Below are positions 4,440 through 38,918 of a DNA stretch of 52,854 nt, piece by piece. Made by a program: the position numbers and the translations under genes. The stretch comes from Desulfobacteraceae bacterium. GTDB taxonomy: Bacteria > Desulfobacterota > Desulfobacteria > Desulfobacterales > SKZT01. The stretch covers positions 1 to 52,854 of the forward strand of contig SKZT01000192.1 of the NCBI GenBank assembly GCA_007127235.1. The letters run 5' to 3'. The notes under the pieces are model-generated. The model saw only the letters and a program-made list of their open reading frames with translations. It did not search any database and was not told where the DNA came from. Position 1 is the first letter of the stretch. Each line of letters starts with the position of its first letter.

Positions 4440-5154
4440 GCTGGATGTAATCCTGGTGGAAAGGGGGCTTGCCGGCAGTCGTGAAAGGGCCAAGTCCATG
4501 ATTATGGCAGGTAAGGTCTTGGTGGATGATTTTCCTGTTGACAAGGCGGGAACGCTGATTGACAAAAACGCCCGGGTTCAGCTCAGGGGCGAAGACATTG
4601 CTTTTGTAAGCCGCGGTGGCATCAAGCTTGAACAGGCACTTAAAGATTTCAGCCTGGATGTTTCCGGCATGATTTGTCTGGATGTGGGGGCTTCCACCGG
4701 GGGCTTTACAGACTGCCTGCTGATGCATGGTGCAAAAAAAGTTTTTGCTGTAGATGTGGGTTATGGACAACTGGCATGGAAACTTCGACAGGATTCGCGG
4801 GTTATAGCCATTGAACGCACCAACATTCGGTCCATGAAAACCGGCACCCTTCCCTCACCCGTTGATTTGGCCACAATCGATGTGTCTTTTATTTCCTTGA
4901 AAATCGTGGTACCTTCCGTAAGCAAATTTCTGAAAAAAGGAGGATCTATTCTTGCGTTGATAAAACCCCAGTTTGAGGTCGGAAAAAATAAAGTTGGAAA
5001 AGGCGGTGTGGTTAAGGATCCGAACCTGCATCAGGAAATTGTTGATCAATTGATTATTTTTTTTGAACAACTCGGACTTACATCCTGCGGAATTTATCCG
5101 TCACCCATTTTAGGTCCAAAAGGAAACCGGGAGTTTTTTATCCTTCTAAGGTAG
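4420..5154 (+). CDS. tlyA: TlyA-family rRNA 2'-O-methyltransferase (hemolysin A-like)
   Basis: S4-like N-terminus (RLDVILVERGLAGSRERAKSMIMAGKVLV) plus an FtsJ-type SAM-binding motif (LDVGASTGGFTDCLL). Overlaps the dxs 3' end by 20 nt. Confidence 0.85.
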   Translation: MGKSKHRLDVILVERGLAGSRERAKSMIMAGKVLVDDFPVDKAGTLIDKNARVQLRGEDIAFVSRGGIKLEQALKDFSLDVSGMICLDVGASTGGFTDCLLMHGAKKVFAVDVGYGQLAWKLRQDSRVIAIERTNIRSMKTGTLPSPVDLATIDVSFISLKIVVPSVSKFLKKGGSILALIKPQFEVGKNKVGKGGVVKDPNLHQEIVDQLIIFFEQLGLTSCGIYPSPILGPKGNREFFILLR

Positions 5155-5334: not shown

Positions 5335-7407
5335 ATGACTGAAATGGTTGAAAAATTAAGAAATATTGCTCTAGTTGCCCATGGCGGTGCCGGAAAGACT
5401 TCTTTGGCGGAAGTGATGCTTTTTGATGCGGGTGTAACCACAAGGTTGGGTCGGGTGGAAGACGGCAATACACAAATGGATTTTGAACCGGAAGAACTCA
5501 AACGCAATATCACCATCAGCAGCTCCTTTCACCAGTTTCCATGGAAAAAACACAGGGTCAATATTATCGATACCCCCGGAGACCAGAATTTTTTTTCTGA
5601 TACCCGTACCTGCATGCAGGCAGCCGATGGGGTTATTGTTGTGGTTGATGCGGTTGATGGAGTTAAGGTTCAAACCGAACTGGCCTGGGATTTTGCCGAA
5701 GAATTCAGCTTGCCGTGCACGATTTTCATCAATAAGCTGGACAGGGAAAGAGCAGATTTTTTCAGAGCTTTCAATGAGGCTTCTGAAATATTTCAACCAA
5801 AACCCATCATCACACAGCTGCCCATTGGTTCAGAAGATAAATTCAGCGGGATTGTCAATTTGTTGACCATGAAAGCCTATACTTATGATGAAAATGGGAA
5901 GTCCAAAGCAACGGAAATTCCCTCTGATATGGCGGAACAGGTGGAATCGGAAAGAGAAAATCTCATTGAAAATGTGGCTGAAGCTGATGACGAACTACTG
6001 GAAAGGTATCTGGAAGGAGAATCCCTTTCCGATGATGAAATCACAGCTGCACTGAAAAATGGCATTCAGGAACGCTTGTTTGTTCCGGTACTTTGTGGTT
6101 CAGCCACCAAAAATGTGGGTATTGATTTGCTTCAGGACTACATTGTTCAATGCATGCCATCCCCTTTGGACAGAGGTGACTGGAAAGCCCTGGACCCGTC
6201 CGGAGAAAAAGAAATAAGCGTATCACCCGACCCGGAGGCCCCGTTTTCAGCCTTTGTTTTTAAAACTGTTGCGGATCCTTATGCCGGCAGACTCACTATA
6301 TTTCGAGTTGTGTCGGGAACACTTGGGGGAGACGGAAACTTTTATAATACCAACAAAGAGACTCGTGAACGATTCAATCAGCTTTTGAGAATTACCGGCA
6401 AAGAGCAAAAACCTGTTGAAGAGGCCGGACCCGGTGATATTGTAGCGGTTTCAAAACTGAAGGAAACCACTACGGGTGATACGTTGTGCGATGAAAAAAA
6501 TAAAATTAAATTCACCCTGGCAGATCCCATGCCACCTTTGATTTCCTTTTCCCTGGTACCCAAGAGTAAAGGGGATGAAGACAAGGTTTTTACATCACTT
6601 CAAAAACTTTTGGAGGAAGATACAGCGCTTCAGGTTGACAGAAATGCCGAAACCAAGGAAATCCTTTTATCCGGTTTGGGAAATATTCATATCGAAGTGA
6701 CGGTTGAAAAACTCAAAAGAAAGTTTAATGTGGAAGTCGATTTGAATACCCCAAAAGTACCCTATCGGGAAACGATTCGGAAAAAAGTAAGGGTTCAGGG
6801 CAAGCATAAGAAACAAACCGGCGGCCATGGCCAGTATGGAGACTGTTGGATTCAGCTGGAACCGCTTCCGCGGGGAGAAGGTTTCGAATTTGTAGATGCC
6901 ATTGTCGGGGGATCCATCCCCAAAGGATACATACCGGCCGTTGAAAAAGGCGTTTTGGAATCCAGCCAGAGAGGTGTTCTTGCCGGATATCCATGTATTG
7001 ATTTCCGGGTAACCGTGGATGATGGTTCATACCATCAGGTGGATTCCTCTGAAATGGCCTTTAAAGTGGCGGGTTCATTAGCCTTTAAAAAAGCTGCCAC
7101 CCAGGCTGAGCCGGTACTCCTGGAACCCATCATGGCAGTGACCATAACCACCCCCGATGAATATATGGGTGATGTAATGGGCGATTTGAACAGCCGTCGT
7201 GGACGGGTGCTTGGCATGGATAACAAGGGAAAAAATCAGATTATCAATGCCAATGTCCCCATGTCGGAAATGCTGACATATGCACCGGATCTCAGATCCA
7301 TGACCGGCGGAAGGGGCATTTTCACCATGCAGTTTTCCCATTACGATGAAGTTCCTGCTCAGGTGGCGCAAAAGATCATTGAAGCAGTCAATAAAGAGAA
7401 GGAATAG
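5335..7407 (+). CDS. Elongation factor G paralog (EF-G II-like translational GTPase)
   Basis: 690 aa with G1 AHGGAGKTS, G3 DTPGDQNF, G4 NKLD, and EF-G domains II-V recognisable. A GAGAGGAG Shine-Dalgarno lies upstream of the ATG. It is not in an rpsL-rpsG-fusA-tuf context, and its G1 deviates from the canonical AHIDAGKTT. Confidence 0.85.
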   Translation: MTEMVEKLRNIALVAHGGAGKTSLAEVMLFDAGVTTRLGRVEDGNTQMDFEPEELKRNITISSSFHQFPWKKHRVNIIDTPGDQNFFSDTRTCMQAADGVIVVVDAVDGVKVQTELAWDFAEEFSLPCTIFINKLDRERADFFRAFNEASEIFQPKPIITQLPIGSEDKFSGIVNLLTMKAYTYDENGKSKATEIPSDMAEQVESERENLIENVAEADDELLERYLEGESLSDDEITAALKNGIQERLFVPVLCGSATKNVGIDLLQDYIVQCMPSPLDRGDWKALDPSGEKEISVSPDPEAPFSAFVFKTVADPYAGRLTIFRVVSGTLGGDGNFYNTNKETRERFNQLLRITGKEQKPVEEAGPGDIVAVSKLKETTTGDTLCDEKNKIKFTLADPMPPLISFSLVPKSKGDEDKVFTSLQKLLEEDTALQVDRNAETKEILLSGLGNIHIEVTVEKLKRKFNVEVDLNTPKVPYRETIRKKVRVQGKHKKQTGGHGQYGDCWIQLEPLPRGEGFEFVDAIVGGSIPKGYIPAVEKGVLESSQRGVLAGYPCIDFRVTVDDGSYHQVDSSEMAFKVAGSLAFKKAATQAEPVLLEPIMAVTITTPDEYMGDVMGDLNSRRGRVLGMDNKGKNQIINANVPMSEMLTYAPDLRSMTGGRGIFTMQFSHYDEVPAQVAQKIIEAVNKEKE

Positions 7408-7489: not shown

Positions 7490-7530
7490 TCTATGGACAT
7501 GGCTTAATTATTTCCAGCCATGTCCATAGA
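7490..7530. repeat. Perfect 14-bp inverted repeat TCTATGGACATGGC / GCCATGTCCATAGA with a 13-nt loop
   Basis: Read directly. It lies in the convergent intergenic region between the EF-G paralog (+) and the SSS-histidine kinase (-), so it may be a bidirectional terminator or part of a repeat element. Confidence 0.6.
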
Positions 7531-7638: not shown

Positions 7639-10374
7639 TTACCTTTTTACGTTCTCACCCTTTCCCATTATCGGCAAGGTAAATGAAAAGGCCGTGCCTT
7701 TGCCGGGCTCACTTTCCACCCAGATTTTTCCATTGTGGTAGTCGATAATTCGTTTGGTGATGGTAAGTCCAAGTCCGCTTCCGGTGGGTTTTCCCCGGGA
7801 AGTGTCCTTGACTTGCCGGAATTTATCAAAAATAATTTTTTGATTTTCTTTGCTGATACCTATGCCATTATCGATGACATCCACTTGCAGGTAATTGTTT
7901 TTTATCCATAAATTGATGGTTATAAGACCTCCATGGGGTTCACAAAATTTGACGGCATTTGAAATAAGGTTGACCATGACCTGGAAAAGTCTGTCCCGAT
8001 CCCCAAGTGCTGCCGGAACTTTTTGCGGGAGGTTCAACTGGGACCTTATTCCTTTTTCTTTTAGCAGTTGGCTTAAAGCGGTAAGCGCATCGTTGATCAC
8101 CTTTTTAATATTTATAGGTGTGACCTGCCATTCCATTCTGCCGGATTCGATTTTTTGAAGATCCAGCACTTTTGAAATAAGGCGGGTCAAGCGTTCCGTT
8201 TCGTTAATGATGATCTGGGTAAATTGCTTTTTCTGACTTTTGCCAATGTTGGGATTATCATGAAGTATTTCGGCCAGTGCACGAACGGAGGTCAAAGGCG
8301 TGCGCAATTCATGCGTAACAGTGGAGATAAAGTCATCCTTGAGTTTATCCAGTTCTTTAAGTCTTTCATTGGCGGCCTGAAGTTCCAGCGAGGTTTTTTC
8401 GAGTTCACGGCTGTATTCGATAACCTGCCGTGTTTCGTCGAGAATATTCATGACCTCTTCGATGCCTAAAGATTCTTCTTTGACCACCGAGGCCACCATG
8501 ACACGGGCCGATGCTGACCCGATGGCTCCAGCCAAGAGTTTTTCAGCGTGATTGACCAAGCCCGCATCCGAGGTCAGTGATTTGTTCCAATCAATTTGAT
8601 GCCTGTTCATATATTCGGAAAGGCCTTCATCGGCTCTTTGCTTTCCTAAAAACCTGCTCAAAAGCGACCGTAAATCAGGAACCGATGCAGTTCCCCGCCA
8701 GAAAAAAGATTCGCCCGGACCTCTGGAATATTTGAACACATCGACAAAAAGCGCTGCCTGTGTGGCTTCAATGGGAGATGGCCGGGTAAAGACAGATACG
8801 CCGACATATGCGCCGATGTTGACCAGCATACTCCAAAAAACCGCGTGGGTGATACTGTTGAATCCTTCCAGACCGAAAAGTTGAAAGGGTTTTAAAAGAG
8901 CAATACCAAAGGGGCCTTCCAAAACAAAATTCTGGTGAATAAATCCGGCCTGAACCAGGGACGGAAGAAAAAGCGTATAGATCCAAACTGCAAAGCCGCC
9001 TATTAAGCCGCAGAGAGCGCCCATCCGATTGCCGTCTTTCCAGAAAATTCCCCCGATTATGGCCGGTGCAAATTGTGCCACAGCGGCAAACGAAACCAGG
9101 CCGATAGAAACAAGTGGATAAAATTCACCGATAAATCGGAAATAAGTATACCCTAACAAAAGGGTGAGAGCGATTCCGGCCCGACGGATTGTCAGCAAAA
9201 AATGGCTCAAATCACTTCTCTGAGCAAACCGAGTGAGAGGCATCCACAAAAGTACCGGCATGACCAGATCGTTGCAGATCATGGTGGAAAGAGCGATGGT
9301 TTCCACAATAACCATGCTTGTGGCAGCAGACATGCCGCCAATATAAACAAAAAGGGCGAGACCCTCCTGGTTTTCAATCATGGGAAGGGTTAACACAAAG
9401 GTATCGGCATCCACGCTTCCATCCGGAAAGTGCAGCAACCCTGCAAATGCCGCCGGCAACACAAAAATGTTGATGGCCAGAAGATATAGCGGAAAAAGCC
9501 ACATGGCCTTATTGATATGTTCTTCGTTGACATTTTCCACTACCCCGATTTGAAATTGTCTCGGCAAACAAATAATGGCCATCATGGAAAGAAATATGCT
9601 GACACCCCAATCTGCAGAGGTACCGTTTTCCATCCCAACTGTGAAAAGCTCGTGCAACTCAGGGTTTTCCCGGGCTTTACTGATAATGTCTCCGAACCCA
9701 TTGTAAATGAAATAGGTAATAAAAATGCCGACTGTTAAAAATGCCACCAGCTTGACAATTGATTCAAATGCAATGGCCGCCACCAGGCCTTCATGACGTT
9801 CGGTGGCTTCCAGGTGACGAGTGCCGAACAGAATGGCGAAAAGGGCCAAAAGCACTGCCACATGAAAAGTGGTGTCTTTGAGCACCGGTATTTGATCGAA
9901 ATGAACCGAGGGCATGACAATATCAGGGTAATTCTGAATAATCTGGAAGCTGATAGAGATGGCTTTGAGTTGAAGTGAAATGTAGGGAATTACACCCAGG
10001 ACAGCGATAATTGTCACCACCCCGGCCAATGATGCGCTTTTTCCGTACCGTGAGGCGATAAAGTCTGCAATGGATGTAATATGATGAATTTTACTGATAC
10101 GAATGATTTTTTTGAGCACCACCCAACCCAGGGCGGCCATGAGTGTAGGCCCGAGATATATGCTTAAAAAGCTGGGCCCCGTATGAACCGCCCTTCCCAC
10201 ACTGCCGTAAAATGTCCATGCCGTGCAATATACGGCAAGCGAGAGAGCATAGATATAAGGATTGCTGATAATGCTTCTGCCGATATCCGCCCTTCGGTCC
10301 CCATAGTAGGCAATGGCGAACAGCAACCCCATGTATCCGAACGAGAAAAAGAAAATGATCCCTGTTTCTAACAT
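7639..10374 (-). CDS. Sodium:solute symporter (SLC5/SSS) domain fused to a histidine kinase (CbrA/CrbS-like sensor without receiver domain)
   Basis: 911 aa. The N-terminal ~520 aa are polytopic membrane SSS-like. A soluble linker and coiled coil follow. Then come an intact H-box (FISTVTHELRTPLTS), N-box (NLISNAVKF), G1 (DNGIGI) and G2 (GSGLGL). Confidence 0.85.
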   Translation of the reverse strand: MLETGIIFFFSFGYMGLLFAIAYYGDRRADIGRSIISNPYIYALSLAVYCTAWTFYGSVGRAVHTGPSFLSIYLGPTLMAALGWVVLKKIIRISKIHHITSIADFIASRYGKSASLAGVVTIIAVLGVIPYISLQLKAISISFQIIQNYPDIVMPSVHFDQIPVLKDTTFHVAVLLALFAILFGTRHLEATERHEGLVAAIAFESIVKLVAFLTVGIFITYFIYNGFGDIISKARENPELHELFTVGMENGTSADWGVSIFLSMMAIICLPRQFQIGVVENVNEEHINKAMWLFPLYLLAINIFVLPAAFAGLLHFPDGSVDADTFVLTLPMIENQEGLALFVYIGGMSAATSMVIVETIALSTMICNDLVMPVLLWMPLTRFAQRSDLSHFLLTIRRAGIALTLLLGYTYFRFIGEFYPLVSIGLVSFAAVAQFAPAIIGGIFWKDGNRMGALCGLIGGFAVWIYTLFLPSLVQAGFIHQNFVLEGPFGIALLKPFQLFGLEGFNSITHAVFWSMLVNIGAYVGVSVFTRPSPIEATQAALFVDVFKYSRGPGESFFWRGTASVPDLRSLLSRFLGKQRADEGLSEYMNRHQIDWNKSLTSDAGLVNHAEKLLAGAIGSASARVMVASVVKEESLGIEEVMNILDETRQVIEYSRELEKTSLELQAANERLKELDKLKDDFISTVTHELRTPLTSVRALAEILHDNPNIGKSQKKQFTQIIINETERLTRLISKVLDLQKIESGRMEWQVTPINIKKVINDALTALSQLLKEKGIRSQLNLPQKVPAALGDRDRLFQVMVNLISNAVKFCEPHGGLITINLWIKNNYLQVDVIDNGIGISKENQKIIFDKFRQVKDTSRGKPTGSGLGLTITKRIIDYHNGKIWVESEPGKGTAFSFTLPIMGKGENVKR

Positions 10375-10375
10375 T

Positions 10376-10675
10376 TTATTCCCCGTTTCGGTGAAGACTG
10401 ATTTTCGGTTTCGGTGAAGACTGATTATCGGTTTGTTGTTTTGAAGGCTTTGGTTTTTTGTCTCTGGGAAGGTATTTTTTGGGATGTATACTGGTGATCA
10501 AAATTAATGAAATGATAATAACGCCCCAGACAAAAAACAAATAGATGTACAGAAGGGGAATGCCCCAGATAAATATTTTATAATTGAATAACGAGAGGAT
10601 GGGAAAGTTAAATACCAGGCAGCCCAGCAAGAAAATACTGAAAATCCGTTTGCTTTTAATACTTTCAGGGGTCAT
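10376..10675 (-). CDS. Small two-TM membrane protein, DUF3311-like putative SSS accessory subunit with a Lys/Pro-rich tail
   Basis: 99 aa. The pattern FNFPILS...GIPLLYIYLFFVW resembles the small DUF3311 proteins encoded just upstream of SSS transporters. The stop lies 1 nt before the kinase ATG, and the start overlaps the SNase gene by 11 nt. Confidence 0.6.
   Translation of the reverse strand: MTPESIKSKRIFSIFLLGCLVFNFPILSLFNYKIFIWGIPLLYIYLFFVWGVIIISLILITSIHPKKYLPRDKKPKPSKQQTDNQSSPKPKISLHRNGE
10385..10426. repeat. 23-nt-period tandem duplication (GTTTCGGTGAAGACTGATT twice, at 10385-10403 and 10408-10426)
   Basis: Read directly. It lies in the last ~16 codons of the DUF3311-like ORF, 10-50 nt upstream of the kinase start. 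The period is not a multiple of 3, so the two copies are read in different frames. Confidence 0.8.
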
Positions 10676-11345
10676 TGAGGTCTCCTAAACTCAGGCATCG
10701 CCTGCACGGTGCATAACCCTGCCAAAAAGCATCCCAGGCACTTGTGAGCAGGATTTCGTTTTTTGGGTGGGTTTTTTTCCCCCAGGAACAATCCGGTGTA
10801 TGAAAACGTTTTGAATTCCTGTTTCCAATATACCATTCCGATTTTTCACGCAGATTTTTCCATATTCCTCTTTTGTGTGCCATGGCCTGCTGTTGTGTCT
10901 TGATCAACAGGTCACGATATTTCAGGTTGGGCTTGCTGTGCAGATAAAAAGCGTATCCTTTTTCCAGGAGGGCTTGATTTACAAACACGCCGTTTTCTGT
11001 GAACACATAGGCCAGTTTTCGTCCAAAGCGATCTGTTTTTTCCCGGTCATATTCCAGTCTCAGCTTTGTGGACAATACCAGTTTTTCATTGTATTCTTTA
11101 GCGGCATATCCATAGGGTTCGGCAATATTGTTCTGATGATCGATTTCAGGAGAATCAATGGCGATATACCTGACAAAAGTGCCATCTTTCAAAACGATGG
11201 TATCGCCATCGGCAACCCATTTGACCCTGACCCACTCTTCCCCGAAAACATAATGGGGAAAAATAAACAGCCAGGCAAGAACCCAGAGTAAAAAGAAGCA
11301 TCTATTAAAAAGTTTTCCGGCCAGATTCCATTTAAGCAAGTTCAC
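10665..11345 (-). CDS. Membrane-anchored staphylococcal-nuclease (SNase/thermonuclease) homolog with a C-terminal Ada-type zinc-binding motif
   Basis: SNase core: VKWVADGDTIVLKDG...VRYIAIDSPE...PYGYAAKEYN...DRFGRKLAYVF...ALLEKGYA. An N-terminal hydrophobic anchor is present (FFLLWVLAWLFIF). The C-terminus FHTPDCSWG...SAWDAFWQGYAPCRRC resembles the Ada N-terminal Zn motif. The start is uncertain. The track gives 11489, which lies deep inside the upstream gene. GTG 11345 gives a 14-nt overlap, and ATG 11429 is also possible. Confidence 0.75.
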   Translation of the reverse strand: MNLLKWNLAGKLFNRCFFLLWVLAWLFIFPHYVFGEEWVRVKWVADGDTIVLKDGTFVRYIAIDSPEIDHQNNIAEPYGYAAKEYNEKLVLSTKLRLEYDREKTDRFGRKLAYVFTENGVFVNQALLEKGYAFYLHSKPNLKYRDLLIKTQQQAMAHKRGIWKNLREKSEWYIGNRNSKRFHTPDCSWGKKTHPKNEILLTSAWDAFWQGYAPCRRCLSLGDLNDP

Positions 11346-12447
11346 AGACTTTTGCAGCGCTTCTATCCAACATTGCCGGCAACCCCCCCCTCTCCGCGGG
11401 GACAAATCCAAGGGAATTTTTCCAGACATGTTCATCCTCCATGCAAAAATACAAGCAAACATCCGGTGCAATTTTTCTGATATGTTCAATAATCGCCTTA
11501 TAGAAACTTATTCTCAAAGGTTTGAAATATCGCATTTTGCCATCCAGGCCTCTGATGAATTCCCCATAGACAATTTTAGAGTGTGGAAATCGTTCTTGTA
11601 TGGTTGGTTTCAACGATGGCATAAAGCGAAAGGTCCCAAGGCTGATCCAGGGAATATTTTCGGGGTTGATATATGAAAATAGTTTTGTAATCACATCTTT
11701 GTAGTCGTTTTCACATCCGGGATAAAGCACCATGGGATCAAAATGAAAGGCTACGGGATATCCCCATTGCTGGCATTTTTGGGCGGCATATAGTCGGGAC
11801 TTGAGAGATGCGGTTCCGCGTTCCTGTGTGCGGATAATTTCTTGGGTGTTCAAAGACCAGGCCAATATGGTTTTTCGGTTGTGTTTCAGGCTTCGGAAGT
11901 TTTCAATGGCGGTGGTTTTTGTTTTAAGCTCCAACACGCAATGGTGCTGATTTGAAAAAATCGGAACCAGCAATTGGGACAAGTCGGTCCCATATTCCCA
12001 GATGAGACTGTCGGTGAATTCGCCTGTTCCGATTCTCAAAAGGATCTTTTGTTCAAGTGCCATGTGAAGTTCTTCAATCATGTCATGGTGATTCACAAAA
12101 AACTGTAATAGCGGTGGATGAAAATAAGACTGTAGTATGCAATAAGAGCAATCCATGGTGCAGAAAGTGCCCACATGAAGAATCTGATAATCACAGCAGA
12201 TATAGTTTTGAGTCCCGGGGCATTTTTTTAAAAATGCACCTTTGTTCCGGGTCAGATAAAGTGTTTTCTTCCCTGCTTTGACCGGGTCGGCATGGGTATT
12301 GATTTTTTCATAAAGGGTTTGGACATCATGGATTATCTCAGCGGAGCATTGGATCCGGTCACATATGGATTTTACCTGTGATAAATGCTGTACAGAGCTG
12401 TCGATATATATTTGTTCGATGGGCATGCTTTTATTGTGATCACCCAA
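11332..12447 (-). CDS. Spore photoproduct lyase-like radical SAM protein (SplB family)
   Basis: 371 aa with the radical SAM cluster motif CTMDCSYC in the context HVGTFCTMDCSYCILQSYF. Overall length and layout resemble SplB-family proteins. The start is TTG 12447 (8-nt overlap with the upstream gene) or ATG 12426. Confidence 0.7.
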   Translation of the reverse strand: MGDHNKSMPIEQIYIDSSVQHLSQVKSICDRIQCSAEIIHDVQTLYEKINTHADPVKAGKKTLYLTRNKGAFLKKCPGTQNYICCDYQILHVGTFCTMDCSYCILQSYFHPPLLQFFVNHHDMIEELHMALEQKILLRIGTGEFTDSLIWEYGTDLSQLLVPIFSNQHHCVLELKTKTTAIENFRSLKHNRKTILAWSLNTQEIIRTQERGTASLKSRLYAAQKCQQWGYPVAFHFDPMVLYPGCENDYKDVITKLFSYINPENIPWISLGTFRFMPSLKPTIQERFPHSKIVYGEFIRGLDGKMRYFKPLRISFYKAIIEHIRKIAPDVCLYFCMEDEHVWKNSLGFVPAERGGLPAMLDRSAAKVCELA

Positions 12448-14770
12448 TCCCTACAAATTCGAAATTGAGTTGGGCCTGGAATTTTTCAATTCGTTTAAAG
12501 ATTTCTTTGAGCATGGTCTGTTCGATGCGGGACAATTTTTTAGGCTTAATGTAATTGTCCGGCTTGGCGTTTTCATCTATAATGGCGGAAATTTGCCGTA
12601 CAAACCTCAACTGCATCATAAAGCTGTAGGCTTGATCCAAATCATTGTAGTCCTGCCACGAGAGCCGGTTTTTAACGTAGAGCTGAAAAAGACGGTCCTG
12701 GGTATTGGTTTCATCGATCTTGTTTTTTAAAGCATAAATTCGCGCATAGTCAACAATGGGCTGCATGGCCGATTTAATATCAAAGGCATCCTGGTGCTGA
12801 CCTTTGGATTCCACCACAAAATTTCGAAAAAAGCCGATGGGAGGTTTGAAGTAGAGTGCATTTTCAGTCAGGTTCCGGAAAAATCCCGCCCAGCCCTCCA
12901 GCGAATCGAATAAAAATTGATGCAGATCCGCAATGAGTGTTTTGTCTCCGTATCCGCATTTAAAATCAAAGAAAATACTGGATTTGAGCAATTGTTCAGG
13001 ACCTCCTGCATATATCCATGATGAAAAATAGTCTTTCCAGACCGACAGTGGCTGGCACCATTTCGGGTTTTGGGCCATATTGTCGCCTTCACAGAAAGAA
13101 TAACCAGCCTGATCCAGCCAACTGCATACTTTTTTACCCAGTTGCAGAAAATATTCCTGGGCCTCCTTTTCAGTTTCACCGGAGACATCCTGATATACGA
13201 TGGCATTGTCCTGATCCGTCTTTAAAGTCTGTTCTTTCCTTCCCTCACTGCCCATGATCATAAAAGCAAAACGCGCAGGAGGATCTCCCAGATCCTGGAT
13301 GGCAAAATCTATCAGTTTCTTCAAGATGGTATCTGAAATAGTGGTGACAAGGCGGGTTACATTTTTAGACTTGGCACCCCCATGAATAAGGGTTTTGATA
13401 ACACCGGGAAGCTGGCTGTGTTTATCGATAATGGATTCGAGAGATGCTGCTTCGGTAATTTCCCGCACAAGAAAGAAGGGTGACTGTTCCTGTGCATTTA
13501 AAAGATCACGATTGGTCACCACCCCGATGACTTTTTCATCCATATCCGTCACAGCCAGGTGTTTGACCCCCGTTTGGGTCATCTGTATCATGGCTTCAAA
13601 AATGAGGGCTTCCTTGGGAATTAAACTGATCGGGTTGGACACAATTTCGGCCACTGGTCGATGGATATCATATCCTGCGGATACGACTTTATTTCTCAGA
13701 TCGGCATCCGTAAGAACACCGGTAAAGTTGTTATTGGAGGACTTGATAAAAACGGAACTTGATTTGTGCCTCGCCATAATACTTGCGGCTTCCTGGATGG
13801 AAACCCCGGAATCACAGTAGACTAGATCCCGGTTATAAACCGTCTCCACCGGCTGGTTGAAAAACTGCTGTTCTTCATGCCCCTGATAAAGGGACTTTGA
13901 CACAATGGCGGCATAGGATCTGTCAAGCATTCGTTTTCCGAAAGTATCCGTGAAATATTCGGAAAAAACCTCATACTCTCTGCAAAGAGCCAAGAACTCT
14001 TTTTTGGGCAAAATATAAAAATAACAATCTTCGGTGCACTTTAGTGTGCGTACGGCAAGGGCATCATTTACCAGAAGCGTGATACCCCCAAAATGCTCCC
14101 CTTCCCCCAAAAGCCCCAGCAGCCTTTTCTGATCGCCTTCCTCATAGTAACGTTCGGCAGCCCCCCTTTGGATGATGTAAAGGTAATCAAGCTTTGTCTG
14201 TCCCTGAACACACATGATTGAGCCCTTGGGGTAGTGAACGATAGAAAGTTTGCCGGCCACCTTTTCGATTTCATCATCAGGAAGAAAAGAAAACGGAACA
14301 ACACTTACAAGAAACTGAAAAGACTGCTCTATGGCCAGTGTGGAAACGTAAGATTCATCAAGCATTCTTTGGCTGTAAATATCCACAAAATATTCTTTGA
14401 TGAATTCATGGCGATTGCACATCTCAAAAAAAGGTTTCTCAGGCATAACATAATAAGCGGCATCTTTTTCTACAGCCACGGTCCTGAAAGAAATGCCCGA
14501 GTTCATCAACATGGAGACTGCTCCGCACAAATCCCCCCGCTGAAGAAAAACGGTAAACGTTTTTTTTCCCCTGATTCCATGGTAAGCTTCAATGGACCCG
14601 CTGTTGACAATAATTAAATGATTGACTTTTGTTTTTCCCTGAGAATAAAGCACCGTGCCTTTAATCTTTTTTTCAATCCAAACCCTTCTGGCGTAATTTT
14701 TCAACTCCTCTTTGGGAAGCTCCGAGAAGGGGGGTATGGTAGATAAAAATTCAAAAGCCTGATCACTCAT
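12440..14770 (-). CDS. Signal-transduction protein: 2x cyclic-nucleotide-binding domains + CBS pair + DUF294 GlnD-like nucleotidyltransferase + DUF294_C
   Basis: 776 aa with two CAP-effector-like domains (LYSQGKT...IIVNSGSIE; CVQGQTKLDYLYIIQRGAAE). The CBS pair is around SSVFI...GVLTDADLRNKV and HLAVTD...IGVVTNRDLL. An NTase core follows (MGSEGRKEQTLKTDQDNAIVY), then a helical C-terminal domain. Confidence 0.8.
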   Translation of the reverse strand: MSDQAFEFLSTIPPFSELPKEELKNYARRVWIEKKIKGTVLYSQGKTKVNHLIIVNSGSIEAYHGIRGKKTFTVFLQRGDLCGAVSMLMNSGISFRTVAVEKDAAYYVMPEKPFFEMCNRHEFIKEYFVDIYSQRMLDESYVSTLAIEQSFQFLVSVVPFSFLPDDEIEKVAGKLSIVHYPKGSIMCVQGQTKLDYLYIIQRGAAERYYEEGDQKRLLGLLGEGEHFGGITLLVNDALAVRTLKCTEDCYFYILPKKEFLALCREYEVFSEYFTDTFGKRMLDRSYAAIVSKSLYQGHEEQQFFNQPVETVYNRDLVYCDSGVSIQEAASIMARHKSSSVFIKSSNNNFTGVLTDADLRNKVVSAGYDIHRPVAEIVSNPISLIPKEALIFEAMIQMTQTGVKHLAVTDMDEKVIGVVTNRDLLNAQEQSPFFLVREITEAASLESIIDKHSQLPGVIKTLIHGGAKSKNVTRLVTTISDTILKKLIDFAIQDLGDPPARFAFMIMGSEGRKEQTLKTDQDNAIVYQDVSGETEKEAQEYFLQLGKKVCSWLDQAGYSFCEGDNMAQNPKWCQPLSVWKDYFSSWIYAGGPEQLLKSSIFFDFKCGYGDKTLIADLHQFLFDSLEGWAGFFRNLTENALYFKPPIGFFRNFVVESKGQHQDAFDIKSAMQPIVDYARIYALKNKIDETNTQDRLFQLYVKNRLSWQDYNDLDQAYSFMMQLRFVRQISAIIDENAKPDNYIKPKKLSRIEQTMLKEIFKRIEKFQAQLNFEFVGIG

Positions 14771-14799
14771 AGAAACTCCTTAATGTTCCACTTACCTGA

Positions 14800-16962
14800 C
14801 TAATATTTCAACCTGGCATACATGGTCTTTTTTGAGGCCTGACGGGCTTCTTTCATGGTATGGATACCCTGTTGGGCCAACAGAGGGATAAATTTCAAAA
14901 AAACTTCCGCCGTAGCAAGCGTGTCACCCAAAGCGGTGTGTCTTCCCACTATACTGATACCCAGCCGGTTAGCAATCGATTCCAGGCTTTGATCTTCCTG
15001 GGCAGGGTTTACCACGGCTGCCAGCAGCAGCGTATCGAGGACGGGGTTTATAAATTTGATGTTGGTTTGTTTTTCCTTCAACTCCAGCATTCGCATATCA
15101 AAGGCGGCATTATGGGCTACAAGTACCGTATCTTCGGCAAACATGTGGAACAAAGGAAGAACCTGGTCGATGGTCGGCTGTCCTTCAAGCATTTCCGGTT
15201 GTATCCCGTGAATTTTAATAGATTCTATAGGTACATGACGTTTGGGATCAATGAGTTGATCAAAAATTTCATCATGAAGAATGCGCCCATTGACGATCCG
15301 AACAGCGCCGATAGCAATAATTTCGTCGTTTCCTCTCGTATCCAGACCGGTGGTTTCCGTATCGAAAACAGTATATGTAAGAGACAGCAGCGAAAGGTCA
15401 TCCAGTTCCGGATTCTGTCCCGGTTGATTGAACAGGTCAAAATCGTAGAACTCGGGACGACTATCCGGAACGATGGTCATGGTACGGATATTATCGGACT
15501 CTACCGCTTCGACGGCAGGGAGACAAAAGCGCAGATAGGACTGATTTTTCACGTCCCGGCAGGAATAAGACCAGATTTCCGCCTCATGGTGCCCGACAAC
15601 TTCCTTGAGCGTGAGAGGAATACCTTCATCTTCGATCATCAACGGCTGTTCATCCCATTTTTTAAGTGTTTCCATCTTGATAGAGCCGCCTTCCCATAAA
15701 AGATCAATATTGACGAATCTTCCTTTCCTGCTCAAAGTACAAGCAAAATTTTTCCCGTCAAACTGTTTTTTAATTTGATTCAGAATATAAAGGATAGAGG
15801 TAATAATGGAGTAGCTGTCCACCTTAACCCATTCATCAGAACCGTTGGTTTCCGTTGACAGTTGAATTCCAAGTGCCTTATCGGCTCTTTTTGCAATGGT
15901 TTCCACCAGATCCTCAGCAGGCATTTTAACGAGAGGCCACTCGGTTTTAACATGGCTCGAATAATCGATGGCGGCTTTGTCCAAAAGATAGCCCAGTGCG
16001 AGAGCTTCTTTATGGATAATTTCGTTGAATTTTTTCTGCTGCTCTTCATCCATGTGAGGATATTCCAGGATGGCTTCGATTGCAGCCCGGATACTGGCCA
16101 CAGAAGCCCTGATACCCCTGGAAAGGTTTTTCAGTAAAAAATCAACCCGGCTGTCCACCTGAATTTGCTGAGTAATATCATAAAAAATGGTGATAAAACC
16201 GGTCAGTTGCCGCTGCTGATTTAAAATCGGGACCGTTTCCACCCTGAGCAGGTTGCCTTCTTTACCTACAATGACAAAGTAAGCGGCGATGTTGAGTTCT
16301 TCACGCCTCAATTTTTCGGCAATTTCATCGAGGGCGTGAACAATCACGTTTTTATCAATGACTCCAAATATCGAGCGCCCAAGCCCGATAAACCTCCCGG
16401 TTTTATTCAATGGGGAATCATTTTCCGTCTGACCTTCCAGAAACTCCCTTGCACGCTTATTATAAAAAAGTATTCGACCTTCCGCATTGCATATGAGAAT
16501 CCCCTCGGGAAGTTCCGCCATAAAAGCCGCCAGCAGGTTTTTTTCCTCTTCGAGATCTGCTTTGGCGATCTGGATTTTTTGTTCCACGTTTGCCCGCAAA
16601 TCTTCCTGCCGGTCTGCTCCCCGGTTAATCGCTTTGGCCAGACGTCCGATCTCTTTGCTTCCTTCCACTTTGATTCGGTGGGAAGGATTCACGGAATTGA
16701 TTATGGTAACTTCTTCAATAAGCTTATTGATGGGAATGATGTAGTTGTTGAAAATGGCGTCGAGAATAAACCCGAAACCGGCGAGAATAACAAAAACAAC
16801 ACCGAAAATATATATGAAACGCTCCCTGGCTATTCGCAGAAGCATTTCGGCTTCAGAAGGCGAAAGCTGCTGCCATAAAAAGAACCCGAGGCTTACCACC
16901 AAAGCAAGTGCGATGGTGAAAGAGACTGCAACGAACCACCAGTATTTGTTGTTGGGATTCAC
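14800..16962 (-). CDS. Membrane sensor (2 TM-HAMP-PAS-degenerate histidine-kinase-like module) fused to a C-terminal DEDDh (DnaQ/epsilon-like) 3'-5' exonuclease
   Basis: 720 aa. Exo motifs: Exo I FDTETTGLD, Exo II LVAHNAAFDMRML, Exo III HTALGDTLATAEVF. Upstream is a PAS-like segment (LPEGILICNAEGRILFYNKRAREFL). A DHp-like helix reads LSRGIRASVASIRAAIE and has no phospho-acceptor His. The ATPase-like fold lacks clear N/G boxes. GTG start with a GGGAG Shine-Dalgarno. Confidence 0.8.
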   Translation of the reverse strand: MNPNNKYWWFVAVSFTIALALVVSLGFFLWQQLSPSEAEMLLRIARERFIYIFGVVFVILAGFGFILDAIFNNYIIPINKLIEEVTIINSVNPSHRIKVEGSKEIGRLAKAINRGADRQEDLRANVEQKIQIAKADLEEEKNLLAAFMAELPEGILICNAEGRILFYNKRAREFLEGQTENDSPLNKTGRFIGLGRSIFGVIDKNVIVHALDEIAEKLRREELNIAAYFVIVGKEGNLLRVETVPILNQQRQLTGFITIFYDITQQIQVDSRVDFLLKNLSRGIRASVASIRAAIEAILEYPHMDEEQQKKFNEIIHKEALALGYLLDKAAIDYSSHVKTEWPLVKMPAEDLVETIAKRADKALGIQLSTETNGSDEWVKVDSYSIITSILYILNQIKKQFDGKNFACTLSRKGRFVNIDLLWEGGSIKMETLKKWDEQPLMIEDEGIPLTLKEVVGHHEAEIWSYSCRDVKNQSYLRFCLPAVEAVESDNIRTMTIVPDSRPEFYDFDLFNQPGQNPELDDLSLLSLTYTVFDTETTGLDTRGNDEIIAIGAVRIVNGRILHDEIFDQLIDPKRHVPIESIKIHGIQPEMLEGQPTIDQVLPLFHMFAEDTVLVAHNAAFDMRMLELKEKQTNIKFINPVLDTLLLAAVVNPAQEDQSLESIANRLGISIVGRHTALGDTLATAEVFLKFIPLLAQQGIHTMKEARQASKKTMYARLKY

Positions 16963-17090: not shown

Positions 17091-17324
17091 TCATTGCAGC
17101 GAACTCCAAGGAATAACGATCATTTCAATAAAGACATATGCTAAAAAACTAATCGCACCTAATGCTGCCAAATAAATTAGGAAAGTATTCCATTTGTGCG
17201 TATTTTTTTCATTCTCATAATAATAAACCGGATTTGCGCACTTTTCACACCAGTATCTTCTTCGGTCAATGGTGAAAGTATGTCCGCAATCACACTGAAT
17301 TTCCTTGGGAGGCAGTCTTTCCAT
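17091..17324 (-). CDS. Small zinc-ribbon protein with a C-terminal TM helix (hypothetical)
   Basis: 77 aa with a CxC...CxxC motif (CDCGHTF...CEKC) followed by a hydrophobic helix (FLIYLAALGAISFLAYVFI). Confidence 0.5.
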   Translation of the reverse strand: MERLPPKEIQCDCGHTFTIDRRRYWCEKCANPVYYYENEKNTHKWNTFLIYLAALGAISFLAYVFIEMIVIPWSSLQ

Positions 17325-17411
17325 GGTAATGATTCCTTTGCATATTATTTATAACAAAATTATTTCATACGTAAATTTTCAGCTATTTTAACCAAAAAGT
17401 CAAGATTTGCA

Positions 17412-17450
17412 ATAAAAAAGGCCGAAAGATAATTTCATATCTTCCGGCCT
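17412..17450 (-). terminator. Rho-independent terminator of the acs-SSS-minipeptide transcription unit
   Basis: The minus strand reads AAGGCCGGAAGAT-ATGAAATT-ATCTTTCGGCCTTTTTTATT. This is an 11-bp stem with one G-U/mismatch, followed by a U6 tract, about 20 nt after the 28-aa ORF stop. Confidence 0.7.
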
Positions 17451-17469
17451 TAACTTAACAGGGTTCAGC

Positions 17470-17556
17470 TTAACCGAAAAGACCCAAACCAAAAGAGGCG
17501 GTCCACAAAACAGCGAATGCAATCACGCCGATAAGATAAATATCTTCTTTATCCAT
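17470..17556 (-). CDS. Unannotated 28-aa single-TM peptide MDKEDIYLIGVIAFAVLWTASFGLGLFG
   Basis: Below the ORF-track length cutoff. ATG preceded by AGGAGG at 7-nt spacing (CCAGGAGGTAGCCAATATG). It starts 30 nt after the SSS transporter stop and is followed by the terminator. Confidence 0.5.
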   Translation of the reverse strand: MDKEDIYLIGVIAFAVLWTASFGLGLFG

Positions 17557-17586: not shown

Positions 17587-19392
17587 TTAAGCTTCTTTTA
17601 TAACGATCATGGTTTCTTTTTCAGCCCTTTCGATCTGTACAGGACTTGTGGTGGACATTTCAGATTTGAAACTCCATCCCCACATCACGACAATACCAAT
17701 GATCCACCAGAAAATCTGCCATGACCACACCGGTGTGAACCCTCCGAATGTAAACCAGCTGTTGGCCATAATGCAGAGAGGTCCGATAGCAATAACATAC
17801 CAGCCGATGACGACATATTTCCAGACATTTCGCCATGCTTGGCCTGACTCGCTTGGTGCATCAATGTCGTCGAGGAAATTGCGCACCTCCTGCTGGCGCT
17901 TGATGGTTTCTTCGTCATCTTTTATTCCAAGCCCCCTGCAGAGGTAAGCCACAATGAAGGCAACGAACGTACCCCAGAAAGCACAGTGCATTGACAGCGG
18001 GTTGGGCCAGACACGATAGGTAAGGGTTACGGCAATCAGACCGGCCAGCGTGCCCAGAACAGCACCCATGGACGGGAATCTGAATCCCCAGAGAACTCCA
18101 GCCTGGAATAGGTACATCACAAATCCAAAAGCTGTGGCCAGGGCTCCAAGGATAACGAGAGCCGCCTGTGAAGTCAGACCAACGGCCAAAGCAGCTATTG
18201 TCAGTACGGTGGCAAGAATACGGTTCACCCAAATCTGCTCGGCATGGGTGGCTTCCTGATTTTTGATGTATCTCCAATAGACGTCACGGAGCAGGATAGA
18301 TCCGCCGGTTCCCAGATAAGGTGCCGCAGTTGAGTGAATAGCGGCAATAGCACCTACAAAAACTATTCCCAGCATAAACGGCGGCAGGTACAGTTTCATA
18401 AAGATGGGTACGACAGTTCTGTCCGTAAGCCCGCCGACTTCTGCTGCAGCAGACATAAATGCCGGATCATTTGCCACTTCCAATACCTTGGCGCCCATGC
18501 CCTGGAATGCGGAAAAGAAGAACAGAGCAAAACCAACCACAAAACATGACATGAACGTCTGCTGCCAGGCAAGGGGTGCCGGGGATTTAATGCCGAAGTT
18601 CCACATGGTAAAAGCCGGAGATGATTGAATACCCATGAGTGCAAACATATAGGTAAGAATCATTACCGCGGTCCATCCACCACCCAGACCCCAGTTGATT
18701 ACCATTGGTACTTCCAGATATCTGGTCTCGAGCAAAGCAACATTTGCGGAAAATGCCCCCCAACCTTCGAAAATCGGATGGGTAAGAACATAAATACCAA
18801 TAATGATAATACCGCCTACCAGCAAGATGAACTGGATAACGCCAACCCATGTACTTGCCTTGAGACCTCCGGTGCACACATAGAACCACACGATAAATGA
18901 AAGGAAAAGCACTCCAAAAGTAAATGGCACGCCGGCGATAACCTCGAACAACGCACCGGCAGCCATCAACTGGATTGCCGAGTAGAAAATGGAATACAAA
19001 ACAGCAGTGAAGACTGTCAACCAGCGGGTTGCTTCCGAGTTGTAATAATAGGCGTACATGTCACCGGGGGTAACAAACCCGTAACGTTTGCCCATCAACC
19101 AGTTTCTTTTAGCAAATAAAGCGCCGGTCATGGGAATGCAAAATACGTAAAAGGATGCAAATGCATAAGCCAGACCGTCGCGCCAGATCAATCCTGGATG
19201 CCCGATAAAGGTCCATCCGGAAAAAGATGCGGCTGTGGCCGCCATTAAAAACGCGATGAAAGGAATCGACCGCCCAGCGATAGAGTAGCCCGAGGAGGTC
19301 TTTTCAGTAAAATATCCTTTCAAGCCCCAGTAAAAGCAATAAATAATATAAATCGCCAAAAAAATATAAACCCAAGTGACTCCACCCAACAT
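17587..19392 (-). CDS. Sodium:solute symporter family transporter (probable monocarboxylate/acetate uptake by context)
   Basis: 601 aa, polytopic, with an SSS-like N-terminal half (YSIAGRSIP...SFSGWTFIGHPG). AGGAGG Shine-Dalgarno 7 nt upstream of the ATG. It sits immediately downstream of acs. It diverges from E. coli ActP, and I saw no DUF485/yjcH partner. Confidence 0.8.
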   Translation of the reverse strand: MLGGVTWVYIFLAIYIIYCFYWGLKGYFTEKTSSGYSIAGRSIPFIAFLMAATAASFSGWTFIGHPGLIWRDGLAYAFASFYVFCIPMTGALFAKRNWLMGKRYGFVTPGDMYAYYYNSEATRWLTVFTAVLYSIFYSAIQLMAAGALFEVIAGVPFTFGVLFLSFIVWFYVCTGGLKASTWVGVIQFILLVGGIIIIGIYVLTHPIFEGWGAFSANVALLETRYLEVPMVINWGLGGGWTAVMILTYMFALMGIQSSPAFTMWNFGIKSPAPLAWQQTFMSCFVVGFALFFFSAFQGMGAKVLEVANDPAFMSAAAEVGGLTDRTVVPIFMKLYLPPFMLGIVFVGAIAAIHSTAAPYLGTGGSILLRDVYWRYIKNQEATHAEQIWVNRILATVLTIAALAVGLTSQAALVILGALATAFGFVMYLFQAGVLWGFRFPSMGAVLGTLAGLIAVTLTYRVWPNPLSMHCAFWGTFVAFIVAYLCRGLGIKDDEETIKRQQEVRNFLDDIDAPSESGQAWRNVWKYVVIGWYVIAIGPLCIMANSWFTFGGFTPVWSWQIFWWIIGIVVMWGWSFKSEMSTTSPVQIERAEKETMIVIKEA

Positions 19393-21578: not shown

Positions 21579-21722
21579 CGATTTCTCCCTCAACCAATCA
21601 TGTTTGCCCCTAAAAGAGAAAAAAACATATCATTTTTAAAAAACTAAATATTTGTTTGAAATCCGATTGCCTTCCTGACCCAAAATCCCCCCTTTCCATA
21701 AATAGTACGGAAACTTACAGAC

Positions 21723-38821: not shown

Positions 38822-38864
38822 ATTAACAAATAATGGTTCTGAAATTTAAGTTATAAATTTTTAA

Positions 38865-38888
38865 GGAGTGCAAAAGCTGTGCTTTTGC
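38865..38888 (+). repeat. Hairpin repeat family copy GGAGTGCAAAAGCTGTGCTTTTGC followed by ATTTTTT
   Basis: Identical to the units at 22503-22526 and to the reverse complement of 22590-22613. It lies between two minus-strand genes. Confidence 0.8.
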
Positions 38889-38918
38889 ATTTTTTCACAA
38901 GATTACACCTAGTATTCT

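Follow-up and report, generated by a model that had tools for sequence, protein, structure and literature searches.

Do six genes of very different kinds that lie packed on one strand of a bacterial contig form one system? The question is raised by a 52,854-nt stretch of Desulfobacteraceae DNA (contig SKZT01000192.1, assembly GCA_007127235.1), hereafter called the window. Its minus strand encodes, from 16962 to 7639, a sensor-exonuclease, a DUF294 nucleotidyltransferase, a radical SAM enzyme resembling spore photoproduct lyase (SPL), a staphylococcal-type nuclease (SNase), a small two-helix membrane protein and a histidine kinase with an SLC5-type transporter domain. The comparison of related loci favoured, with a probability of about 70%, a mosaic operon in which an acetate-sensing module was spliced around a resident and unrelated SPL-SNase pair.

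Layout of the six-gene cluster

All six open reading frames (ORFs) were confirmed as follows.

16962-14800, minus strand: exonuclease gene, 720 aa
14770-12440, minus strand: DUF294 nucleotidyltransferase gene, 776 aa
12426-11332, minus strand: SPL-like gene, 364 aa
11345-10665, minus strand: SNase gene, 226 aa, GTG start at 11345
10675-10376, minus strand: mini-ORF (two-helix membrane protein), 99 aa
10374-7639, minus strand: SLC5-type kinase gene, 911 aa

The junctions were re-read in the sequence. The exonuclease TAG (14802-14800) is followed by a 29-nt gap carrying AAGGAG before the DUF294 ATG (14770), and a 13-nt gap separates the DUF294 TGA (12442-12440) from the SPL ATG (12426). The SPL TAA (11334-11332) lies inside the SNase gene, giving a 14-nt overlap from the GTG at 11345 or 8 nt from a TTG at 11339. 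The SNase TGA (10667-10665) and the mini-ORF ATG (10675) produce an 11-nt overlap, and a single nucleotide lies between the mini-ORF TAA and the kinase ATG at 10374 (TAAaATG). These spacings agreed with the original prediction of six tightly packed minus-strand genes, and profile searches with Pfam and curated models agreed with its domain calls for the proteins. The prediction had allowed either an 8-nt overlap or a 13-nt gap between the DUF294 and SPL genes. The overlap would need a TTG start at 12447; ATG 12426 was preferred because homologues are 364-366 aa long and this ATG is the start in public gene calls, so that the gap was kept and the overlap dropped. Another candidate, a 274-aa SNase ORF starting at 11489 and overlapping SPL by 158 nt, was rejected because relatives start at the signal peptide and public calls give 226 aa. 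Identical gene calls were found for the same DNA in sediment metagenomes, and the spacing was likewise tight in two related loci, L001 and L002 (related loci are given L numbers below).

SPL and SNase belong to a conserved housekeeping block

A total of 80 loci with an SPL homologue, one per GTDB species, were compared; these were the best 80 of at least 575 matching stretches, and nearly all were titled Desulfobacterales or related Thermodesulfobacteriota. Gene order was read from tblastn with the window proteins and from clustering of all ORFs. The results showed a backbone of a GTPase gene, a cyclic nucleotide-binding (cNMP)/DUF4388 gene, a PilZ gene, purC, a ParB/Noc-like gene (c3), a TetR gene, a variable position (slot A), SPL, SNase and a second variable position (slot B), followed in the opposite orientation by EF-G, tlyA, dxs, ispA, xseB and xseA. 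Slot A was empty, or held acs, or acs-actP-(zn77 or receiver gene)-exonuclease-DUF294, or unrelated genes, where zn77 is a small Zn-ribbon gene described below. Slot B was empty in most loci, and the mini-ORF and kinase occupied it only in the window, L001-L004 and L069. The families were distributed around SPL as follows.

DUF294 gene 5' of SPL: 10/50 loci with at least 5.2 kb upstream
Exonuclease gene 5' of SPL: 9/50 loci with at least 5.2 kb upstream
SNase gene 3' of SPL: 43/71 loci
Kinase gene 3' of SPL: 5/56 loci with at least 4.2 kb downstream
Convergent EF-G gene 3' of SPL-SNase: 33/56 loci with at least 4.2 kb downstream
All six families: 2/36 loci with both flanks visible
SPL and SNase without exonuclease, DUF294 and kinase: 16/36 loci
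SPL alone: 12/36 loci

Copies of acs, 76-91% identical, lay 5' of SPL in 9/33 loci with 10 kb of upstream sequence, and a symporter gene stood 5' of the exonuclease gene in every locus extending far enough. In a rough SPL tree, loci with exonuclease and DUF294 genes fell in several clades, and those with the kinase fell in the clade of the window plus L069. Eight further SPL contexts at 35-45% identity, five of which carried the name of a source in another phylum, had none of the five other families next to SPL. The conserved housekeeping block counts SPL and SNase among its resident genes. The original prediction had pictured them as inserted into an acetate gene pair, and the gene order shows the reverse, with acetate genes in the variable slots. 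Its proposal of one new six-gene functional system fared no better, given that all six families came together in two of 36 loci and that SPL and SNase stood without the others in 16.

In one version of that proposal, all six proteins would work together in a single, integrated system for nucleic-acid or nucleotide signalling and turnover linked to carbon status; the nucleotidyltransferase, exonuclease, radical SAM enzyme and nuclease would share a substrate and be controlled through the PAS, cNMP and SLC5 modules. In its favour are the tight packing with overlaps and the plausible action of three of its enzymes on nucleic acids or nucleotides, and the gap between DUF294 and SPL is at most 20 nt in at least six considerably diverged species. 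We nevertheless regard it as improbable. The full set is rare and SPL-SNase usually stands alone; the exonuclease-DUF294 pair occurs with acs/actP but without SPL and SNase in Alpha- and Gammaproteobacteria; the SNase has a signal-peptide-like N-terminus and probably acts extracytoplasmically, apart from the radical SAM enzyme in the cytoplasm; and across phyla SPL keeps c3 as its partner rather than any of the five.

Several points weigh against the mosaic operon as well. The 80 loci represent the closest SPL relatives only, being the best 80 of at least 575 stretches. Within Desulfobacterales the exonuclease-DUF294 pair always lay within 20 nt of SPL, even at 42% exonuclease identity (L018, L044), and such proximity in at least six divergent species suggests that co-expression goes back a long way and might reflect selection, not chance. 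In several loci acs was directly beside SPL without the exonuclease and DUF294 genes. Finally, no response regulator was found among the ORFs of at least 150 aa in the 52.8-kb window, so that the output of the kinase and the acetate assignment rest on neighbourhood and analogy.

The same distance, with the DUF294 stop at most 20 nt from the SPL start in at least six divergent Desulfobacterales species, leads to a further reading in which the SPL enzyme, joined in the lineage of the window by the exported nuclease, was placed, along with the nucleotidyltransferase/exonuclease pair, under a carboxylate- and energy-sensing promoter and the three cytoplasmic enzymes could act on one nucleic-acid substrate. 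We regard this as improbable; if true, tailing, trimming, radical repair or modification of a nucleic acid would depend on carbon status.

The acetate module is old and widespread

The genes directly upstream of the cluster were an acetyl-CoA synthetase gene and a sodium:solute symporter (SSS) gene.

19545-21593, minus strand: acs (acetyl-CoA synthetase), with Pfam ACAS_N, AMP-binding and AMP-binding_C
17587-19392, minus strand: ActP-like sodium:solute symporter gene, Pfam SSF E 7e-31

Thus acs, actP, DUF294 and exonuclease gene types all lie within 21593-12440, and the acetate link that had been proposed from the sequence gained support from the acs and SSS permease genes. Such a set has been described before. 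PP_0354 (cNMP/CBS/nucleotidyltransferase) and PP_0353 (RNase_T-type exonuclease) form an operon in P. putida (PMC9927547), which is a direct target of MxtR/ErdR (CrbS/R), with ErdR binding its promoter (PMC9927547; bioRxiv 10.64898/2026.09.07.749794), and which has shown no more than mild phenotypes on propionate and pyruvate (PMC9927547; PMC5715377; bioRxiv 10.64898/2026.09.07.749794). In P. aeruginosa the same pair adjoins actP-yjcH (PMC9927547).

Comparable arrangements were seen in other genomes. Paracoccus alcaliphilus carries acs-DUF485-acetate symporter-DUF294-hypothetical-receiver-only regulator-exonuclease, Ruegeria TM1040 carries DUF4212-SSS-DUF294-hypothetical-exonuclease, and the DUF294-exonuclease pair is present in Vibrio pelagius and Hymenobacter; no SPL or SNase gene was found near the Paracoccus, Ruegeria, Vibrio and Hymenobacter modules. 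The statement in the original prediction that an exonuclease and a DUF294 gene occur near acs/actP in gamma-proteobacteria was therefore borne out, being published for Pseudomonas and the pair being seen in Vibrio, and it extends to Paracoccus and Ruegeria. These results demonstrated that the exonuclease/DUF294 pair beside acs-actP is an old and widespread module, independent of SPL. Apart from this evidence, V. cholerae may group acs, an exonuclease gene, a DUF294 gene and crbS closely within VC0298-VC0303.

Compared with the MxtR/ErdR (CrbS/CrbR) regulon (acsA, yjcH-actP, PP_0354-PP_0353), the window likewise brings acs, an SSS permease, DUF294, a DEDDh exonuclease and an SLC5-type kinase into one neighbourhood, with the exonuclease and DUF294 genes adjacent and co-oriented. 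It differs in that the exonuclease gene precedes DUF294, the reverse of Pseudomonas, that no regulator gene is nearby, that the exonuclease carries a 520-aa sensor, and that the host belongs to an anaerobic Desulfobacterales lineage.

Boundaries, promoter and transcription

The borders of the cluster were marked by the following features.

17470-17556, minus strand: gene for a 28-aa peptide with one transmembrane (TM) segment, from tblastn conservation and a JGI contig gene call
17418-17451, minus strand: strong intrinsic terminator with a 14-bp stem and T-run, closing acs-actP-28-aa gene
17375-17403, minus strand: sigma-70-like promoter candidate TTGACT-17-GAAAAT, from a promoter scan and conservation; function predicted
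17091-17324, minus strand: zn77, gene for a 77-aa protein with a Zn-ribbon and a C-terminal TM segment (46-76), from tblastn and public gene calls
7490-7530, strand not assigned: 15-bp perfect hairpin in the convergent kinase/EF-G spacer, from an inverted-repeat search
5335-7407, plus strand: EF-G paralogue gene, convergent on the cluster and ending at 7407
21723-22364, minus strand: TetR-family regulator gene (Pfam TetR_N), the backbone gene bordering slot A

The 28-aa peptide gene lies directly 3' of the symporter gene and was conserved by tblastn in L001, L002, L004, L018, L023 and L060. As a side observation, the peptide may be a small transporter subunit, comparable to the DUF4212 or DUF485 partners elsewhere. 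The terminator hairpin behind it (17451-17418) is kept in the window, L001, L002 and L004, and TTGACT-17-GAAAAT was the sole conserved block in a spacer that has otherwise diverged among four species. Next comes zn77, which was 45-64% identical by tblastn in L001, L002, L004, L013 and L060 and always stood between actP and the exonuclease gene; it is probably the first gene of the unit, making seven genes. In L001, the interval between the promoter block and zn77 holds a 30-nt unit repeated about six times with 90% matches (4861-5042), which is absent from the window.

A terminator scan returned 19 weak sites against 15 ± 3.7 in shuffled sequence, and the weak candidates were intragenic. The sole strong terminator was the one upstream of the cluster, in accord with the earlier statement that no terminator-like structure separates the genes. 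At the other end, the kinase/EF-G spacer contains several hairpins, and the one at 7490-7530, which has no canonical T-run directly after it, is the probable 3' boundary with a presumed terminator role. No sigma-54 -24/-12 pattern was found upstream of the cluster, and a whole-window Rfam search at gathering thresholds together with a tRNA scan gave no match and hence no riboswitch or tRNA boundary. The TetR gene lay between c3 and SPL in many loci, with or without acs.

Read-through and coupled translation were proposed because internal terminators are lacking and stop and start codons overlap, and the cluster is probably covered by a single transcript. This has to be weighed against three separate transcription units, with internal promoters for SPL-SNase and for the mini-ORF and kinase and no regulatory connection between them. 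Most SPL genes lie 3' of TetR, c3 or unrelated genes and would need a promoter of their own, the SNase gene is 90-400 nt from SPL in many loci, and sigma-70-like matches do occur inside coding regions of the window, e.g. at 11517-11489. Promoter-like matches as a whole, however, did not exceed the shuffled level (25 against 21 ± 5), the absence of separating terminators would allow read-through from upstream even if internal promoters existed, and the overlaps between stop and start codons point to coupled translation. Separate units were accordingly considered unlikely, although they remain a more serious contender than a single integrated system.

The mini-ORF and kinase resemble cbrX-cbrA

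The mini-ORF protein has two TM segments (9-32 and 33-66) and a tail rich in Lys, Pro and Gln, and in L001-L004 its gene was always directly 5' of the kinase gene. The kinase itself matched HisKA and HATPase_c in Pfam and has the H-box THELRTPL. Its residues 8-475 matched PDB 10ed chain A (606 residues, deposited as 'histidine kinase') by phmmer with E 9e-69, and its SLC5 assignment follows from this match, which ends at residue 475; no Pfam SSF or STAC model matched even at E 5. We presume that 10ed is the cryo-EM construct of CbrA SLC5-STAC described in PMC13488458, judging from the 606-residue length and that paper. Pfam returned no Response_reg or PAS match for the kinase. The possibility that its SLC5 domain is a recent duplicate of the ActP-like neighbour was rejected, as the two matched only with E 0.004 over 150 aa.

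CbrX is a small membrane protein that is translationally coupled to, and complexed with, the kinase CbrA (PMC6591292, PMC13488458). Here, too, a two-helix hydrophobic mini-protein is encoded directly 5' of the kinase gene, with 1 nt between them; the N-terminus of the kinase matches the 10ed chain, and neither kinase has a receiver domain. By analogy the pair would represent a cbrX-cbrA arrangement, with translational coupling as a likely consequence. There are differences: the mini-protein, at 99 aa, is longer than CbrX (about 58 aa), the window kinase lacks a detectable PAS domain and has no cbrB-like gene beside it, and the ligand of CbrA is histidine. CrbS, in contrast, is a hybrid SLC5-STAC-PAS-HisKA-HATPase-REC kinase, and the window kinase, without detectable PAS or receiver domain, is nearer in architecture to CbrA than to CrbS.

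A membrane sensor fused to an exonuclease

The exonuclease protein matched RNase_T/DEDDh (E 4e-37) and PAS in Pfam and also has two TM helices, a HAMP-like stretch and a histidine-kinase-like region. Residues 50-435 gave a WalK/PnpS-like match, with weak HisKA (E 0.054) and HAMP matches. At the H-box position the protein reads LSRGIRAS, and the phospho-acceptor His was replaced in 10/10 family members (Arg, or Thr/Lys in relatives); no HATPase_c match was found in the N-terminal part by Pfam. A bona fide histidine kinase was ruled out by the missing phospho-His and the lack of a recognisable HATPase_c. The DEDDh motifs DxE, D and Hx4D (FDTETTGL, AHNAAFDM, RHTALGD), on the other hand, were kept in 10/10 family members. 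The most fitting description is a membrane sensor whose scaffold is a pseudo-kinase and whose output is an exonuclease. Its sensor part of 520 aa was not present on the 240-480-aa exonucleases seen in other phyla. The neighbouring DUF294 protein contains two cNMP_binding, two CBS, DUF294 and DUF294_C domains (Pfam), and its translation shows the nucleotidyltransferase motif GS-x10-DxD (GSEGRKEQTLKTDQD).

Receiver-only genes were found at the following positions.

L023, 4319-4699: receiver-only gene
L044, 3221-3592: receiver-only gene
L060, 7434-7799: receiver-only gene
L078, 2724-3104: receiver-only gene
L099, 10299-10670: receiver-only gene

In L023, L044 and L060 the receiver-only gene overlaps the exonuclease start, which suggests that the pseudo-kinase part of the exonuclease protein docks a receiver protein. 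A tblastn search of the window with the receiver-only protein k41 of sister loci gave no match, and this gene is missing from the lineage of the window. Two side observations concern the same gene type: in four Desulfobacterales loci it lies just upstream of the sensor-exonuclease gene, often overlapping it, and in Paracoccus it stands between the DUF294 and exonuclease genes, echoing the Desulfobacterales arrangement.

The SPL-like enzyme keeps the SPL fold

The SPL-like protein matched PF20903 with E 2e-24 and failed both curated SPL models (TIGR04070, 112.1 bits against 400; TIGR03886, 39.6 against 437.6). Its AlphaFold model had a pLDDT of 82, and in Foldseek the six best PDB matches were all Geobacillus SPL (including 4fhf, 4rh0 and 4fhc; TM-scores 0.68-0.75, E about 1e-18), with the following match at E 5e-4. 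The radical SAM CxxxCxxC cysteines C89, C93 and C96 were invariant in the family, and the cluster-shielding Tyr was kept in an alignment with Bacillus and Clostridium SplB. At the position of the Bacillus donor Cys141 the protein has Glu136, within an invariant GTGEFTDS, and the strictly conserved Tyr98/99 of SplB corresponds to Ile97, a position that varies among Ile, Val and Tyr elsewhere in the family. Clostridium-type enzymes use a hydrogen-donor Cys at a place occupied by Ser76 in the Geobacillus structure (PMC3467042), and the near-invariant C69 appears, by alignment, to match this upstream Cys of C. botulinum and Ser76 of Geobacillus. Relative to SplB, 6 residues are missing from the lesion-flipping hairpin region, and features added in the family are a CC insert (C77, C78) and a C-terminal extension of about 45 aa with C328.

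Orthology to SplB was ruled out by the TIGR04070 score and the changed Tyr98/99 position. The comparison with Bacillus SplB that had been called for thus came out in two parts: the fold and the Cys cluster agreed, and the relay positions Cys141 (Glu) and Tyr98/99 (Ile) did not. Relative to SplB (PDB 4FHC), the fold, CxxxCxxC and the shielding Tyr are shared, and C69 may correspond to the Clostridium-type donor; the hosts differ, being spore-forming Bacillus and Clostridium for SplB and a non-spore-forming bacterium here, and so do the partners, splA there and the ParB-like c3 here. The protein was classed as an SPL-family enzyme that probably acts on DNA.

At E<=1e-30 the SPL-like family comprised 493 representative clusters, and the looked-up ones included sources from KSB1, Acidobacteriota, Elusimicrobia and Bacteroidota. 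A plasmid collection held no close member of the subfamily; the best matches, at 24-28% identity, were SplB or 'SPL family' proteins. Three minor observations were made on relatives: two SPL-family proteins, P0212 (668 aa) and P0216 (649 aa), carry an N-terminal PNP_UDP_1 domain (nucleoside phosphorylase or MTA/SAH/5'-deoxyadenosine nucleosidase type); a separate PNP_UDP_1 gene lies near another SPL family member in L097 (4693-5433); and an aldo/keto reductase gene lies 3' of SPL in KSB1 (L087) and Elusimicrobia (L091).

A ParB/Noc-like gene is the cross-phylum partner of SPL

The c3 gene of the backbone and its homologues next to SPL in other loci were located as follows.

22626-23630, minus strand: c3, ParB/Noc-like, 334 aa, with weak ParB_N, Noc and ParB matches and a GxxR motif
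L087, 4963-5946 (KSB1): c3-like gene next to SPL
L089, 4929-5918: c3-like gene next to SPL
L096, 3039-4004: c3-like gene next to SPL

In four of the eight distant contexts the gene directly 5' of SPL encoded a full-length c3 homologue, with a 4-nt overlap in two; the E values for KSB1, Acidobacteriota and another lineage were 2e-36, 2e-17 and 3e-49. Counting all loci, c3-like proteins of about 330 aa were encoded directly 5' of SPL in many Desulfobacterales as well as in KSB1, Acidobacteriota and two more metagenome contigs. In Desulfobacterales, 34 loci had c3 co-oriented with SPL and 5' of it, at no more than 300 nt in 10 cases, and c3 was still with SPL in the rearranged L065. In the window the two are about 10 kb apart, the distance being filled by inserted genes. 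A truncated 136-aa ORF 5' of SPL in L097 was examined as a c3 candidate and rejected as not c3-like. The c3 gene is a recurrent cross-phylum partner of the SPL-like enzyme, and the SNase is a partner only within Desulfobacterales. A literature search on DUF294 with acetate and on ParB with spore photoproduct lyase returned nothing on associations of SPL, SNase and c3. The pairing of a ParB-like with an SPL-family protein in Desulfobacterales, KSB1 and Acidobacteriota is perhaps a more interesting and more original lead than the six-gene cluster.

The SNase is probably exported

The SNase domain was matched with E 2e-22 in Pfam, along with a weak Ada_Zn_binding match, and the equivalents of S. 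aureus nuclease R35, D40, E43 and R87 were kept in the alignment. The N-terminus has a hydrophobic segment followed by VFG/EE, and a signal-peptide-like region is conserved in the family; the protein is thus predicted to be exported or anchored and probably works outside the cytoplasm. With the secreted, Ca2+-dependent staphylococcal nucleases (Nuc/NucI) it shares the OB-fold SNase domain, the catalytic Arg/Asp/Glu/Arg and an export-type N-terminus; it differs in a Cys-rich, Ada-Zn-like C-terminal tail and in its score against the NucI model (104 bits, cut-off 250). In the tail (10665-10800, minus strand; FHxxxC...PCxxC), one Cys is Gly in several relatives, from which zinc binding is perhaps not universal in this SNase family.

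The SNase gene was 3' of SPL on the same strand in 42/42 cases, with gaps of -25 to +400 nt and one of 1.2 kb, and it was not next to SPL in any of the eight contexts outside Desulfobacterales. The link between the two may be one of synteny only.

The cluster does not resemble a defence island

The nuclease-rich content could point to an anti-phage defence or stress island on a mobile element, a role that the original prediction had listed, and PADLOC gave generic matches to DEDDh (Cas-associated), an SNc model and PDC candidates, besides a weak CBS match to DS11_antiphage (32 bits, cut-off 260). In PADLOC-DB 2.0, however, the matches were to shared domains (DEDDh, SNc, HATPase-type), each from a different system and none system-specific. 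The flanks are purC, uvrBC, cysS, EF-G, dxs and xseAB, in an order conserved across the bacterial order, no integrase, tRNA or repeat boundaries were found near the cluster, and the GC content was uniform. Such an island is highly improbable, and the stress/defence-type module was dropped.

How the mosaic operon might work

The mosaic operon would comprise two sets of genes. The first, concerned with sensing acetate-type carboxylates, would consist of zn77, the sensor-exonuclease, the DUF294 protein, the CbrX-like peptide and the SLC5 kinase, would belong with acs and the symporter, and would have its Pseudomonas and Vibrio counterpart in the genes of the MxtR/ErdR (CrbS/R) regulon. The second would be SPL and SNase, presumably independent of the first in function. 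In the lineage of the window, acetate genes would have come into both slots flanking SPL-SNase, and the spacers would have collapsed.

The sigma-70-type promoter at about 17400 would then drive zn77, the sensor-exonuclease and the DUF294 protein, which may serve as accessory regulators of carboxylate use with membrane/PAS, cyclic-nucleotide and adenylate (CBS) inputs. Transcription and translation would most likely run on into the SPL and SNase genes and those of the CbrX-like peptide and SLC5 kinase. This kinase may sense or transport a carboxylate, with acetate as the putative signal, and pass it to a regulator encoded elsewhere, which would probably activate acs-actP. SPL and SNase would be passengers, SPL presumably processing DNA lesions and SNase degrading DNA outside the cytoplasm.

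The components and both sub-arrangements are of already known kinds; new here are the sensor-fused exonuclease, the SLC5 kinase without PAS and receiver in Desulfobacterota, and the lineage-specific operon fusion. The acs-actP-exonuclease-DUF294 module and SLC5-type transceptor kinases are extended from Pseudomonas, Vibrio and Sinorhizobium to anaerobic relatives of sulfate reducers, and the sensor-fused exonuclease, together with the overlapping receiver-only protein of sister lineages, may help explain PP_0353/PP_0354-type pairs. More generally, packing alone does not define a system, as parts of one regulon appear here to have filled two slots around a resident pair.

Other genes of the window

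Housekeeping genes elsewhere in the window included xseA, ispA, dxs, tlyA and purC, together with genes for a PilZ protein, a cNMP/DUF4388 protein and an MglA-like GTPase, and further genes were mdh, uvrC, uvrB, cysS, ispF, pgi and xerC/D. On the minus strand at 34213-39683, an unusual chaperone-like trio was observed, consisting of two Hsp70-like paralogues and, after them, a membrane DUF2760 protein; one of the paralogues has a DUF3731 'DnaK-related' domain at its C-terminus.

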